Notes under the pieces: model-generated
What the model saw: the letters and a program-made list of their open reading frames with translations, nothing else
Database searches by the model: none
Told to the model about the DNA's origin: nothing
Program-made: the position numbers and the translations under genes
Shown here: piece by piece, positions 3,246-60,519 of the stretch
Layout: the number at the start of each line of letters is the position of its first letter
Position numbering within the stretch: position 1 is the first letter of the stretch
Assembly (NCBI GenBank): GCA_016875735.1
Contig: VGOW01000011.1
Coordinates: forward strand, 9,288 to 73,287
DNA from: Chloroflexota bacterium
GTDB lineage: Bacteria; Chloroflexota; Anaerolineae; Anaerolineales; VGOW01
Direction of reading: 5' to 3'
DNA: 64,000 nucleotides

Positions 3246-3464
3246 ATGCAACGCATAGCATCTCCACAGACTATGGTATTCCATCTCATCCAACGCGCCG
3301 ATATGGCGCTCACCTCTCGCACCGCCGACGCACTACACCACCTGCTCCTGCGTTGGTGGCAAGCCAAACAACTCAAGCGATCAATTATCGAATACGGCAT
3401 CGTCGCCCTCACCGGCCTCTCGGCAGGAGCCTTGTACTCGCTGGTAACGACTTGGTTGATGTAG
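3246..3464 (+). CDS. possible small membrane protein
   Basis: The last 72 codons of track ORF 2829..3464, from an ATG. It has a C-terminal hydrophobic helix 'IVALTGLSAGALYSLVTTWLM' and locally lower GC. No homology recognised. Confidence 0.3.
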   Translation: MQRIASPQTMVFHLIQRADMALTSRTADALHHLLLRWWQAKQLKRSIIEYGIVALTGLSAGALYSLVTTWLM

Positions 3465-3492
3465 GGACTGGTTGCTCGACTCCTCTTTCGAG

Positions 3493-18419: not shown

Positions 18420-19166
18420 GTGAGCACCGGCAAGCCACCCAGAGATCGCAGCTCAAACAACCCTGCAATGCCAAACGACGACTTCGTCTGGACAGTCCGC
18501 ACGTTCATCTACCAGCATTTTGCGGCGACGACGCGCGCGCCGGGGCTCGGCGAGATCGCCCGACACTTTGGCCTGAGCGCCGGGCAAGCGGGCGAAACCC
18601 TCACGGCGCTTCACGAGAAGCACGCGCTCTTTCTCGAACCGGGGACGCTCGACATCCGCATCGCCAATCCCTTTTCGGCCATCCCCACTCCGTTCGAGGT
18701 GGAAGCGGACGGCAAAAGATATTGGGCCAACTGCGCCTGGGATAGTTTCGGCATCCCCGCCGCCCTGCACGCCACCGAGGCCGCCATCCGATCGGTGTGC
18801 GCTCACAGCGGAGCGCCGCTGTCGTTGAGCGTGAAGCAAGGTCGGGCCGTGAGCAGCGGAGAAGTCGTCCATTTTCTCGTGCCGTTCCAACGGTGGTACG
18901 AAGATATGACCTTCACTTGAGCGACGATCCGATTCTTCCGGTCGGAAGAAGACTTACAGCAGTGGCAAAGCGAGCGCGGCAAGGCCGAGGGCGAAACGCT
19001 CCGCCCCGAACAAGTTTGGGAGTTGTCGCGACTGTGGTATCACAACCGCCTCTCGCCGGACTACCGGGGCCGAACGGTAGCGCAAGTGGAAGAGATTTTC
19101 CACGCGCTCAATCTCACCTCGAAGTTTTGGTACATGGACAAGCCGACGGACGAATTGCAGAAGTGA
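18420..19166 (+). CDS. alkylmercury-lyase (MerB)-family protein with in-frame UGA at 18918-18920 (candidate selenocysteine)
   Basis: The track ORF stops at the TGA at 18918. The same frame then stays open for 81 codons with no start codon, and continues the MerB fold ('ATIRFFRSEEDLQQW...'). 'NCAWD' and 'VCAHSGAPLSLSV' match the MerB Cys96/Asp99 and Cys117 regions. A hairpin lies at 18933-18950. An alternative start is the ATG at 18468. Confidence 0.7.
18933..18950 (+). promoter_or_regulatory. SECIS-like hairpin downstream of UGA 18918
   Basis: A perfect 7-bp stem TTCTTCC/GGAAGAA with loop GGTC. It begins 12 nt after the UGA. Confidence 0.6.
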
Positions 19167-54960: not shown

Positions 54961-55701
54961 TTATACCAACTTGGTCAGCCTCACTTTGCGCAGCAACTGC
55001 GCCTGTATTCCTTGCCGGATGAACGGCGCCGCCCCGCGCCCCGCGCGCGACAGCGCCTCCACCAATCGCAGTGACGTTTCCTCGCCGACGCTCCGATGCT
55101 CCCACTCCTCGCTGACACACTCGATCAGATCATCCGCGTCGTCGAACACATCCACCCATTCGAACCGGCGGGGCGCCGGGGCCGCGAACCAACCCTCATT
55201 CAGAATTTGATCCACCGCTGCGCTGGCCTGCGCGTGACCCACCGGGCCGTCGCCAACCCAGGTGAGGCCGCCGCACCGAGTCTCGCCTCCACTGCGATCT
55301 CGCACCCACACTTCCGGCTCATCCGCCACCGGGCGAATGTCGAGCACAAACCAGCGCGCCACTCGCCATGCTTCTCGGAGGGCATGAACCATGCCCGACG
55401 GCTGCACTCATCAAAGCGACCAGCCGAACACCGCCAGATCGAAACTCGACTCGGAGAAAGGCAATCGCTCGGCCTGCCCGTGCGCGAGGCGCGCGTTCGT
55501 GTCTTTGAGCGACTCGGCGCGCGCGGCGATCAACTCATCCCAATCCGAGTCGAGCGCAACCGTCAACGCCGTCTCCCGTAGATAATGGCGAATCATGCGC
55601 CCATCGCCCGCGCCGATCTCCAACACCCGCGCGCCGCGAAAGTCGGCCAGCGCGTGAAGGACATCATGCTCAAGTTGTTCGGGATTCGGGAAGTCTGTCA
55701 T
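54961..55701 (-). CDS. class I SAM-dependent methyltransferase interrupted by two consecutive in-frame UGA codons (recoded gene or pseudogene)
   Basis: Track ORFs 55411..55701 and 54961..55407 are in the same frame, separated only by TGATGA (55413-55408). Motif I is 'VLEIGAGDG'. '...FDLAVFGWSL-**-VQPSGMVHALREAWRV' is colinear with the usual MTase core, with no gap. A hairpin lies at 55380-55396. Confidence 0.55.
55380..55396 (-). promoter_or_regulatory. SECIS-like hairpin downstream of the UGA-UGA doublet
   Basis: On the coding strand this reads GGGCATG-GTT-CATGCCC, a perfect 7-bp stem. It starts 11 nt after the second UGA and 14 nt after the first. Confidence 0.45.
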
Positions 55702-58050: not shown

Positions 58051-59037
58051 ATGGAGTATCGCAACCTCGGCCCCACCGGCCTCGACGTTTCGGCGATCTG
58101 TCTCGGCACAATGCAGTTCAAGTGGACAGCCGATGAGTCGGCTTCGTATGCCGTGCTCGATTCGTTTTACGAGTCGGGCGGCAACTTCATCGACACCGCC
58201 GACATTTACTCGAACTGGGCGCCGGGCCTCTCCGGCGGCGAAGCCGAAACCGTCATCGGCGAATGGATGAAACGCAAAGGCAACCGCAGCAAAATCATCC
58301 TCGCCACCAAAGTGCGCGGCAAAATGTGGGATGGCCCCGACGGCGAAGGCCTCAGCCGCGCTCACATCATGCGCGCCGTCGAAGACTCTCTGCGCCGACT
58401 GCAAACCGACACCATTGACCTCTATCAATCGCACTGGCCCGATACCGACACTCGAATTGAAGAAACCATGCGCGCCTTCGATGATTTGGTGAAGCAGGGC
58501 AAAGCGCGGTTCGTCGGCTGTTCGAACTACAGCGGCGATCAATTGGCCGAAGCCCTGCAAGCCTCCAAGCGCGACGGGCTGATCGAATACACCACCATTC
58601 AACCCCACTGGTCGCTCGTCGAGCGGCAGAAGTTCGAACTCGAAACTTATCCCACCGTCAAAATCTACGGACTCGGCATCATTCCCTACAGCCCGCTCGG
58701 CCGCGGCTTCCTCACCGGTAAATACCGCGCCAACAAACCTCTGCCCAAGAGTCTGCGCATCGAAAGCGTGAGACCCCTGCTCAACAACAAGAACTTCATC
58801 CTCCTCGACAAACTCGAAGCCATCGGCAAAGCGCGCGGCAAGAGCATCGCCCAAATCGCGCTCGGCTGGCTGCTTGCCCGCGATCAAGTGGTGTCGGTCA
58901 TCATCGGCGCGAACACCCCCGAGCAGCTCGCCGACAGTCTCGGCGCATCGGGCCTGCGCCTCACCGACGACGAGATGTACGAACTCAACCGACTCACCTC
59001 GTGGGCCACGGGCATCCTCAGCACGCCGGTATCGTGA
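58051..59037 (+). CDS. aldo/keto reductase
   Basis: Contains 'LGTMQFKW', 'FIDTADIYS', 'LATKV', 'IDLYQSHWPD' and 'IPYSPLGRGFLTGKY'. The ATG is at 58051. Confidence 0.9.
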   Translation: MEYRNLGPTGLDVSAICLGTMQFKWTADESASYAVLDSFYESGGNFIDTADIYSNWAPGLSGGEAETVIGEWMKRKGNRSKIILATKVRGKMWDGPDGEGLSRAHIMRAVEDSLRRLQTDTIDLYQSHWPDTDTRIEETMRAFDDLVKQGKARFVGCSNYSGDQLAEALQASKRDGLIEYTTIQPHWSLVERQKFELETYPTVKIYGLGIIPYSPLGRGFLTGKYRANKPLPKSLRIESVRPLLNNKNFILLDKLEAIGKARGKSIAQIALGWLLARDQVVSVIIGANTPEQLADSLGASGLRLTDDEMYELNRLTSWATGILSTPVS

Positions 59038-60458
59038 ACCTCCTCCTCGCCTGCTACGAACTCGGCCACCAACCGCTCAGCCTCGCCTGGCCGCTGGCCT
59101 TCCTCAAACGCGCCGGGGCCGAAGCCATCGCGCTCGATCTCGCAGCCCAACCCTTCTCGGACGAACTTGCCGCGCAGGCCCGCTTCGTCGGCATCGCCGC
59201 GCCCATGCACACCGCCCTGCGCATCGGCGTGGAAGCCGCCGCCCGCGTGCGCGCCCTCAACCCCCGCGCGCACATCTGCTTCTTCGGTTTGTATGCCTCG
59301 CTCAACGAGGATTATTTGCTCGAGGGCATCGCCGATTCGGTGATCTCAGGCGAATACGAAGAAGCGCTCACGCAGTTGATCATCGCCATCCGGTCGGGGA
59401 ACCGCCACCCCGCTCAAGTGCCCGGCGTATCCACTCCCGACTCCCGCGCCCACCCCGCCCTCAACCGTCTCCCCTTCCCTCTCCCCGAACGATCATCATT
59501 GCCCGCGCTCGATCATTACACTCGCTATCGAAACAACGGCCACATCCAACTTGCCGGATACACCGAAGCCAGCCGGGGTTGTTTGCACACTTGCGCTCAT
59601 TGCCCCATCGCGCCGGTGTACGGCGGTCGCTTTTTCGTCGCGCCAATCGAAACCGTCCTCGCCGACATTCGCCAGCAAATCGACTCGGGCGCGCAGCACA
59701 TCACCTTCGGCGACCCCGATTTTCTCAACGGCCCGCGCCACGCCCTCGACATCGCCCGCGCCCTGCGCGCCGAGTTTCCTCAAGTCACTTTCGACTTCAC
59801 GGCCAAAGTCGAACACATCATCAAACACCACTCGCTGTTCCCCCAATTCGCCGAACTTGGCTGCGCGTTCATCACTTCGGCCATCGAATCGCTCAGTGAT
59901 GTTGTTCTGCAGAGGCTCGCCAAAAGCCACACCGCGGCCGACATCGAAACTGCGCTGGGCATCCTCGACTCGGCGGGCATCGCCCTGCACCCCACGCTCG
60001 TCGCCTTCACCCCCTGGACGACGCTCGACGATTACCTCGCGCAGATCGAATGGATTCACGCGCGCGGACTCGCTCATCACATCGCGCCCGTGCAGCTGTC
60101 CATTCGACTCCTCGTCCCGCCGCGCTCCGCCCTCCTCAATCTGCCCGACACCCCGCATTGGCTCGGCCCATTGGACTCCGCCAACTTCACCTACCGTTGG
60201 TCGCACCCCGATCCGCGAATGGATAAACTCCACTCTCAAATTTCCGCTCTCGTTGAAGAGGCCGAACTCGCCGACGAGCCTGCTCCACTCGCCCACAACC
60301 GAATCCGCGAAGCGGCCTTCACCGCCGCCGGGCTTTTCGCCCCCCCGCCCTCTCCGTCTCACATCCCCCGCCCCGCCCCTCCGCGCCTCACCGAAAACTG
60401 GTTCTGTTGAGCAGAGCCGACACGAGATCAGGTTGGTCTTTTAGCGAATGGCGGATAG
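59034..60458 (+). CDS. radical SAM enzyme with a C-U-A-E-P tail (in-frame UGA at 60408-60410; CUAEP/CCAEP-tail radical SAM selenoprotein family)
   Basis: Cluster motif 'SRGCLHTCAHCP' (CX3CX2C), plus an N-terminal B12-binding-like domain. The track ORF ends '...TENWFC' at a TGA, and the next codons read A-E-P. The frame continues 15 codons to the TAG at 60456. The GTG at 59034 overlaps the AKR stop (GTGA). Confidence 0.75.
60424..60440 (+). promoter_or_regulatory. SECIS-like hairpin downstream of UGA 60408
   Basis: GAGATCA-GGT-TGGTCTT, a 7-bp stem that includes two G-U wobble pairs. It starts 13 nt after the UGA. Confidence 0.5.
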
Positions 60459-60519
60459 CGGATAGCAGGTAGCAGGTAGCAAGTAGCATTGTTCATTGTT
60501 CATTGTTCATTGTTCATTC
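60446..60519. repeat. consecutive heptamer arrays (GCGGATA x2, GCAGGTA x3, CATTGTT x4)
   Basis: GGCGGATAGCGGATAGCAGGTAGCAGGTAGCAAGTAGCATTGTTCATTGTTCATTGTTCATTGTTCATTC. Confidence 0.8.

Follow-up and report, generated by a model that had tools for sequence, protein, structure and literature searches.

Insertion of selenocysteine (Sec) in bacteria is thought to need a hairpin, the selenocysteine insertion sequence (SECIS), whose distance from a single UGA codon is narrowly constrained, and in Escherichia coli each insertion event is slow and inefficient. Here we describe a gene at positions 54961..55701 (minus strand) of a 64,000-nucleotide stretch of Chloroflexota contig VGOW01000011.1 (the whole stretch is called the window below), which codes for a class I S-adenosylmethionine (SAM)-dependent methyltransferase and is interrupted by two adjacent in-frame UGA codons followed by a single hairpin. 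It would belong to a known kind, the bacterial selenoprotein genes with a coding-region SECIS, and is distinct in having UGA-UGA with one hairpin, a predicted vicinal Sec-Sec at a methyltransferase active site, and a large, systematically mis-annotated family around it. The gene and its relatives probably constitute an uncatalogued widespread selenoprotein family with a Sec-Sec dipeptide in the active site of a SAM methyltransferase and one SECIS for two insertions.

The minimal SECIS of E. coli fdhF, as worked out by Liu et al. in 1998, reportedly consists of an upper stem-loop of 17 nucleotides (nt) whose required distance from the UGA is 11 nt. The window hairpin is likewise a coding-region stem-loop just past a UGA, with a small apical loop that starts with G followed by G or U, and its 17 nt and its distance of 11 nt from the second UGA agree with the reported dimensions of the fdhF element. 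Unlike the latter, it would serve two consecutive UGAs, its stem is perfect and lacks the bulged U, and its sequence stays invariant although the proteins that carry it have diverged to 25% identity. Vicinal chalcogens occur in mammalian thioredoxin reductase, where the C-terminal Gly-Cys-Sec-Gly sequence forms an eight-membered selenenylsulfide ring, and the Sec-Cys variants of the methyltransferase are a mirror image of this pair; thioredoxin reductase, however, is eukaryotic, uses a SECIS in the 3' untranslated region (3'-UTR), and has one Sec, located on the flexible C-terminal tail of a flavoenzyme and not within the active site of a methyltransferase. Several UGAs of one mRNA are decoded processively as Sec in eukaryotic selenoprotein P, but this relies on eukaryotic machinery and on two remote SECIS elements in the 3'-UTR, and to our knowledge the human protein contains no adjacent Sec pair.

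The fold of the window protein is shared by the sugar O-methyltransferases RebM and AtmM (PDB 3bus and 6uv6), which are among its best sequence and structure matches but carry His-His at the place of the pair, are only 17-22% identical to it and probably act on unrelated substrates. ArsM is a class I SAM methyltransferase too, and in its selenoprotein form Sec replaces the As(III)-binding Cys of the 'ISNCV' motif in the loop right after beta4. The post-beta4 loop is also the place of the proposed Sec pair, and an ArsM structure (5evj) is among the fold matches of the family, but ArsM has a single Sec, which our motif alignment places about three residues upstream of the pair, and a different C-terminal domain. 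The Sec form of ArsM (NF008823; motif UxxG) is listed as experimentally verified (PMC13188914, Table 1). Two further methyltransferase-domain proteins, MduS (CxxU) and methyltransferase/UXPK-star (UxxG), resemble the window protein in having two Sec each (Haft & Tolstoy 2025, as given in PMC13188914), whereas the motifs listed for them in that account contain no adjacent Sec pair. A 2026 inventory comprises 119 prokaryotic selenoprotein families, a small subset of which have 2-3 Sec residues, with motifs that include UxxC, CxxU, CU, UxxU and UxxxxU (PMC13188914); neither an adjacent UU motif nor a family matching the window methyltransferase was found among these 119. Literature searches for phrases describing adjacent Sec residues or tandem UGA returned only irrelevant matches, and prior mention elsewhere is possible.

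Neither the window protein nor ten diverse members of its family reached any curated cutoff of NCBIfam (June 2026), where the methyltransferase selenoprotein models compared were ArsM, ArsM/AhpD, ArsM/DUF2284, MduS and methyltransferase/UXPK-star. With the MduS model (NF045649, cutoff 380) the window protein scored 17.0 bits and the ten members at most 43.3, and with the UXPK-star model (NF047649, cutoff 460) the values were 14.6 and at most 56. The arsenite methyltransferase model NF008823 and the ArsM fusion models NF041536 and NF041537 gave at best 47.7, 42 and 50.5 bits against cutoffs of 263, 575 and 510. The best-scoring named family, CpaM (NF043040), reached 31.6-68.7 bits against a cutoff of 180, and only with its N-terminal Rossmann half.

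The interrupted gene and its hairpin

The complete recoded frame begins with ATG at 55701 and ends with TAA at 54963-54961. A preliminary description of this locus recognized here two open reading frames (ORFs) that share one frame, are parted only by TGATGA and together give a SAM methyltransferase of normal length, and all of this holds: the frame has 246 codons, 96 (MTDF...FGWSL) before the two UGAs and 148 (VQPSGMVHAL...KLV) after them, and around the junction it runs MTDFPNPEQ...SSFDLAVFGWSL-TGA-TGA-VQPSGMVHALREAW...TKLV. The tandem UGA-UGA at 55408..55413 (minus strand) consists of UGA1 (55413-55411) and UGA2 (55410-55408) and is read from the sequence as a proposed Sec97-Sec98 in FGWSL-U-U-V. 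The protein joined with X at both UGAs scores 44.1 with the Pfam model Methyltransf_25 (gathering threshold 27) and 39.5 with Methyltransf_11 (gathering threshold 21.2), both matches span the junction, and the GxGxG motif I is present as VLEIGAGDG. In GenBank, where the contig belongs to a Chloroflexota metagenome-assembled genome (MAG), the gene is split into MBM4422816.1 (96 aa), named 'methyltransferase domain-containing protein', and MBM4422815.1 (143 aa), named 'hypothetical protein'.

UGA2 is followed by an 11-nt spacer at 55397..55407 (minus strand; GTGCAGCCGTC, that is, GUGCAGCCGUC), translated as V-Q-P-S(G), and then by a 17-nt SECIS-like hairpin at 55380..55396 (minus strand), GGGCAUG-GUU-CAUGCCC, which also codes for (x)G-M-V-H-A-(L). 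This is the perfect 7-bp hairpin that had been reported to start 11 nt past UGA2 and 14 nt past UGA1, and the sequence confirms it. The consensus for bacterial SECIS (bSECIS) elements, taken from the bSECISearch model, requires an upper stem of 4-16 bp with an apical loop of 3-9 nt, a G within the first two positions of the loop that is usually followed by G or U, a UGA-to-loop distance of 16-37 nt, and a minimum free energy (MFE) of -7.5 kcal/mol or lower (PMC13188914, Fig. 2A). The hairpin has a 3-nt loop (GUU) on its 7-bp stem; the loop reads G-U-U in the window and GUC, GUG or GGU in relatives; the loop lies 21 nt from UGA1 and 18 nt from UGA2, the same in 130 loci; and the MFE of the 25-nt core is -11.3 kcal/mol. 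Compared with the published model, as had been suggested for this locus, a single hairpin therefore agrees with the consensus in all four respects for both UGAs. Rfam scanned over the window at gathering thresholds gave no match and hence no SECIS call.

Perfect 7-bp hairpins with loops of 3-6 nt occur in the window at a frequency of 6.1e-4 per position, so that the chance of one being placed within a 7-nt span beyond a given codon is 0.43%, in agreement with the rough figure of under about 1% proposed before. The full pattern of UGA plus hairpin was matched 0 times in 100 shuffles of the window.

Relatives, distribution and selection

The first homolog search, made in about 5.8 billion proteins, returned full-length relatives of 240-259 aa and fragments of 138-158 aa. 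The full-length Cys-Cys homologs are 52-58% identical to the window protein over 97-100% of the length, and the close full-length relatives all show WSLCC[VILM] at the two UGA columns. The fragments span only the C-terminal 56% of the query and each of them starts at the Met of GMVHAL; on their contigs the split gene stands in a synteny like that of the window, with a DZR zinc-ribbon gene upstream and SH3_3 downstream, then SnoaL_2 and RelA. A second search, with a profile against 1.84 billion cluster representatives, gave 31,221 matches at E < 1e-3 and 1,075 at E < 1e-10, and the best 150 were pooled with the earlier matches into a set of 170 homologs. Of the 84 homologs that extend over both columns, 49 have Cys-Cys there. 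The set further contains 59 N-terminal stubs of ~98 aa that end exactly at ...WSL/WSF, six proteins that end at ...WSLC, and 23 C-terminal fragments that start at the hairpin Met.

At the DNA level, the junction reads TGA-TGA in syntenic orthologs L001/2, L004-7, L130 and L133, TGA-TGC in L003, L009, L131 and L138, and TGA-TGT in L008. In these homology-found orthologs it is followed by a variable 11-nt spacer and then by GGGCATG-GTY/GGT-CATGCCC. The stem is identical in every UGA relative obtained from protein homology (L001-L009, L130, L131, L133, L138), with GUU, GUC or GGU as the loop above it. The codon before GMVHA varies (TCG, GAG, TTG, CCG, TGG, GTG), but its last base is always the G that makes the first base of the stem, and the peptide G-M-V-H-A appears to be imposed by the RNA hairpin. 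The syntenic Cys-Cys ortholog L132 has TGC-TGC and no hairpin, with SGKSPSL where the UGA forms have SGMVHAL, and the more distant Cys-Cys paralog L134 is also without the hairpin. As judged from these alignments, both columns hold Cys or a predicted Sec, and the hairpin travels with UGA. Because these loci were found via protein homology and not via the hairpin, they are unbiased evidence for these statements, the one on G-M-V-H-A included. The preliminary description had proposed that Cys or UGA in these columns of orthologs would speak for recoding and ordinary residues such as His-His against it: among orthologs and paralogs the two columns read Cys-Cys, UGA-Cys, Cys-UGA or UGA-UGA, and His-His appears in 10 homologs, all of them distant generic methyltransferases.

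The Cys-UGA arrangement comes from L136, one of the relatives of the ...WSLC type, where WSL-TGT-TGA-IPPGEMALAVAEA (L136:209-250; identical in L137) gives a Cys-Sec form. Its hairpin is wholly unlike that of the others: it has 8 bp, CCGCCAGG-(9 nt)-CCUGGCGG, and starts only 3 nt past the UGA. With this form included, all of the CC, UC, CU and UU states, where U is a predicted Sec, are present among extant relatives. About nine cluster representatives start with M[AGTL]xAVAEA and are probably of the L136 Cys-Sec type. The Sec-Cys ortholog L138 (L138:1480-1520, 3256-3489) belongs to the DZR/SH3 synteny group and shares the stem, while its loop is GGU and not GUY; a B12-binding radical SAM gene located 1.3 kb away at this locus ends in ...ALAKA and hence has no CUAEP tail.

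The size of the family was estimated by scanning one genome per GTDB species (596 Gb) with the DNA pattern TGATG-N12-GGGCATGGTNCATGCCC. The scan matched at least 120 species genomes (at least 120 loci, L010-L129, a total to be read as a lower bound), against about 0.3 matches that we estimate to be expected by chance from the 21 specified bases. Every listed match lies in one protein context, ...FD-x5-(W/L/S)S(L/F)-UGA-UGN-[IVMLF]-x3-GMVHAL..., and among the 130 loci listed the second codon is TGA in 112, TGC in 11, TGT in 7 and TGG in none. The spacer is 11 nt long in 130 of 130 family loci and varies in sequence; its length was fixed by the search pattern in the scanned loci and was free in those from protein homology. 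The reconstructed proteins are mostly 232-330 aa long (117 complete loci), have a median identity of 35% and a minimum of 25%, and fall into 27 clusters at 50% identity. Most of the 80 matches with titles are Chloroflexota MAGs (Anaerolineae, Thermoflexales, Phototrophicaceae), and other MAG labels are Dormibacterota, Acidobacteriota, Eisenbacteria, Armatimonadota, Krumholzibacteriia and Gemmatimonadaceae. OZ243925.1 and CP070708.1 are examples of sequence records with the UGA-UGA form. A metagenome scan yielded only 4 loci, and a protein-seeded scan of genome contigs, whose back-translated peptide patterns came from the subfamily-specific C-terminus, gave no match.

Some genomes carry several copies, as L013 and L073 on contig CAYGBX010000007.1 or L010 and L041 in one MAG. 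The family therefore appears to have expanded within genomes, with divergent UGA-UGA paralogs each keeping the identical hairpin. Near-identical copies (...VVILSWTL-U-U/C-IARKGMVHALREVHRVLAPGG...) were also seen in a Nitrosotalea sp. MAG (L077), in Gemmatimonadaceae (L083) and in Chloroflexi CF_20 (L076), and such near-identity across labels of an archaeon, Gemmatimonadota and Chloroflexota suggests binning contamination or recent horizontal transfer. All-against-all clustering of the neighbouring ORFs at 127 loci revealed no conserved operon partner; the family members are stand-alone genes, and the idea of a link to a MerB-like or radical SAM gene, put forward in the preliminary description, finds no support in these neighbourhoods.

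Coding continues through the pair. Nucleotide entropy across 127 distinct sequences keeps an unbroken three-base periodicity upstream, in the spacer and downstream, where the conserved xLxPGGxLIDxRP strand is located. Every one of the 127 has T as second base of its first spacer codon, which gives I/V/M/L/F and matches the CC[VILM] of the Cys forms. For 63 sequence pairs, in which the synonymous divergence (dS) reaches about 2, the median ratio of nonsynonymous to synonymous divergence (dN/dS) is 0.20 upstream (80 codons before the pair) and 0.20 downstream (110 codons past the hairpin). Purifying selection is equal on either side of the pair.

Proposed decoding of the UGA pair and the alternatives

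We consider with good confidence that this is a live gene whose product is a full-length class I SAM methyltransferase of ~27 kDa, with both UGAs read as Sec and a predicted vicinal Sec-Sec. Of the two possibilities left by the preliminary description, recoding or a freshly killed gene, it is the recoding that is supported, by Cys at the columns, by the hairpin that accompanies the UGA forms and by the selection on both sides. The following steps of decoding are deduced from the geometry of the locus and established SelB biology. The SelB-GTP-Sec-tRNA complex bound to the hairpin would deliver Sec at UGA1, 14 nt from the stem. One 3-nt translocation would then bring UGA2 into the A site, now 11 nt from the stem, and the hairpin, still folded outside the mRNA entry channel, would recruit a second SelB-GTP-Sec-tRNA complex. 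A third consecutive codon would leave the stem at 8 nt, where the ribosome is expected to start unwinding it, and this, we propose, is the reason why the spacing is fixed and why pairs but no longer runs are found. An invariant 11-nt spacing is what one would expect if both codons have to stay within reach of the hairpin. That UU predominates over UC suggests that double insertion is tolerated or advantageous.

The organism very probably decodes UGA as Sec, because the contig carries two other UGA-containing genes of matching geometry, as had been pointed out before. The first codes for a B12-binding radical SAM protein (59034..60458, plus strand) with a TGA at 60408-60410 in ...WFC-U-AEPTRD. 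It scores 683 bits with the NCBIfam model NF040546 'CUAEP/CCAEP-tail radical SAM (seleno)protein' (cutoff 500), with the UGA at the curated CU position, and the hairpin AGAUCA-GGU-UGGUCU lies 14 nt past the TGA when read by eye, while the MFE fold pairs this stretch differently. Heptamer repeats, GGATAGC twice, AGGTAGC twice and AAGTAGC once, occupy 60452-60490 (plus strand), around and after the extended stop of this gene. The second is a MerB-like ORF (18468..19166, plus strand) with an in-frame TGA at 18918-18920, ...EDMTFT-U-ATIRFFRS..., and the hairpin UUCUUCC-GGUC-GGAAGAA 12 nt past it. It reaches 41-44 bits with the MerB and SaoL models, which is under their cutoffs of 140-200, and is probably a divergent Sec-containing relative of the organometallic lyases; we take its UGA, in a reading that is unverified, to lie at or beside the Cys pair of the MerB 'FCC' motif. 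The three apical loops have G first and then G or U. A gene map based on GC content at third codon positions (GC3) left only these three real UGA candidates, whereas ORF length and hairpin energy were swamped by spurious GC-rich ORFs.

Several observations weigh against reading the pair as Sec-Sec decoded from one hairpin. In DNA of 61.5% GC the folding z-scores are weak (-0.58 for 54 nt and -2.3 for the 25-nt core), and the significance of the hairpin comes from conservation, not from thermodynamics. As to the co-variation of the hairpin, which the preliminary description proposed to check, the stem is invariant among relatives and so offers no compensatory changes. The scan pattern fixed TGA at codon 1, TG of codon 2 and the stem, and the invariance of these positions in L010-L129 is therefore partly circular, the unbiased support being that of the homology-found set. 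In L136 the loop lies 11-12 nt from the UGA, short of the 16-37 nt of the published model. No tRNA at all was detected by ARAGORN in the window, nor was a tRNA-Sec among 120 loci, though the machinery need not be nearby, and no selA, selB, selC or selD was identified in the 64-kb window, which was not annotated gene by gene. Two consecutive SelB insertions would be inefficient if the efficiency per event is as low as in E. coli. Finally, no conserved neighbour gene at the 127 loci hints at the substrate.

The alternatives have to explain the same set of facts. The UGAs could be recoded as Cys or another residue, for instance through a SelB-like factor and a UGA decoder resembling tRNA(Cys), or only UGA1 could be Sec with UGA2 suppressed by a near-cognate tRNA. 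Cys at both columns of the non-UGA forms would suit such decoding, and tRNASec-like tRNA(Cys) species with SelB paralogs are said to have been proposed in some anaerobes by Mukai et al. in 2017. We regard this as unlikely: the hairpin fits the SelB-type bSECIS model, G-U loop included; a curated selenoprotein family is represented on the same contig with its UGA at the curated Sec position; and it is hard to see what a gene would gain from a UGA that still means Cys, although UGA-UGA is found more often than any other form (112 of 130).

Alternatively, translation may terminate at the tandem stops and restart at the hairpin AUG, so that a 96-aa SAM-binding half and a 143-aa half associate into one enzyme. 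An in-frame AUG does lie 12 nt past UGA2 and is used by gene callers, tandem stops favour efficient termination, and purifying selection on both halves is equally compatible with a split gene. A gap between two genes would not, however, be expected to look like coding sequence, as the spacer does with its T at the second base of the first codon in all 127 sequences, and a Cys codon in an untranslated gap would be pointless, whereas the codon after UGA1 is always TGA, TGC or TGT in the homology-found relatives. The varying sequence of the 11-nt spacer makes a conserved Shine-Dalgarno motif impossible there, the homologs with Cys-Cys are single chains, and the break would cut a single Rossmann domain in two, after beta4 and before alphaD. 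This scenario appears very improbable to us.

A freshly inactivated pseudogene, in which two nonsense mutations (e.g., from TGC-TGC or TGG-TGG) arose next to a coincidental hairpin, could account for adjacent stops that resemble a strong termination signal, for the two separate ORFs in the GenBank annotation and for the weak single-sequence fold z-score. But at least 120 species-level genomes, and many metagenome contigs besides, share the interruption together with the hairpin, the relatives, with a median identity of 35%, are not assembly artefacts of one sequence, and of the 117 complete loci most have a downstream frame that stays open to give a protein of normal length, about 232-330 aa. 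Since dN/dS is 0.20 downstream as well as upstream at dS up to about 2, a recently killed gene is for practical purposes excluded, and the corresponding half of the preliminary description is refuted. A genome-wide change of the code with UGA as a sense codon (codes 4 or 25), which the in-frame UGAs in three window genes might suggest, has a negligible chance of being correct because TGA is the usual stop of most coding-like ORFs in the window, other ORFs parted by TGA in the same frame are adjacent genes (MetB-like/MttB-like, GDP-mannose dehydratase/GlmM), and the three in-frame UGAs all stand at Cys positions (in the MerB-like ORF by an unverified reading) and are each followed by a hairpin.

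Probable active site and significance

The pair probably lies where the chemistry of the enzyme takes place. The AlphaFold model of P0001, a Cys-Cys ortholog 58% identical to the window protein, has a pLDDT of 92.9 and places the pair at residues 98-99, just past beta4 (E89-95) and before alphaD. In class I methyltransferases the residues past beta4 line the site of methyl transfer, turned towards the acceptor atom and the methyl group of SAM. Foldseek matched the P0001 model with probability 1.0 to many solved methyltransferases at TM-scores of about 0.5-0.62, and the matches are generic small-molecule enzymes: AtmM, RebM, TleD, YcgJ, TTHA0223, BioC, the thiol methyltransferases GtmA and TmtA, and CrArsM. 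In the profile-to-PDB alignment the pair coincides with the two His of 'ESLHHMPD' in RebM and AtmM, which in RebM are presumably His140/His141; we take these to be proposed catalytic residues although a literature check found nothing on this point. The Sec-Sec, Sec-Cys or Cys-Cys pair is thus most likely an active-site chalcogen pair, as the model and the alignment indicate. Our best guess as to its function, a tentative one drawn by analogy, is that the pair may bind a soft substrate, a metal(loid) or chalcogen species, that is to be methylated. It could alternatively act as a methyl-relay nucleophile or as a redox switch. The second-best match of the radical SAM protein of the window is ArsL, the enzyme that forms the C-As bond of arsinothricin (301 bits vs 450), which hints at metalloid chemistry on this contig.

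The public databases split the genes of this family (protein clusters P0038-P0170) systematically: 59 of the best 150 representatives of 50%-identity clusters are N-terminal stubs. A curated model would correct many gene annotations and enlarge the selenoproteome of Chloroflexota, a lineage abundant in soils, sediments and groundwater. If the proposed decoding is true, the pair would be the first 'UU' motif known from prokaryotes, as judged by the 119 families of the 2026 inventory. UGA-UGA on one hairpin then probes how much spacing SelB tolerates and whether a second complex can be loaded on the same element within one translocation step. The coexistence of CC, UC, CU and UU forms among relatives may serve as a natural series for the study of Cys-to-Sec exchange and of vicinal diselenide chemistry. 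We know of no characterised enzyme with an encoded vicinal diselenol or diselenide beside the SAM methyl group, and a diselenol in this position would suggest that soft metal(loid) or chalcogen substrates are methylated or bound.

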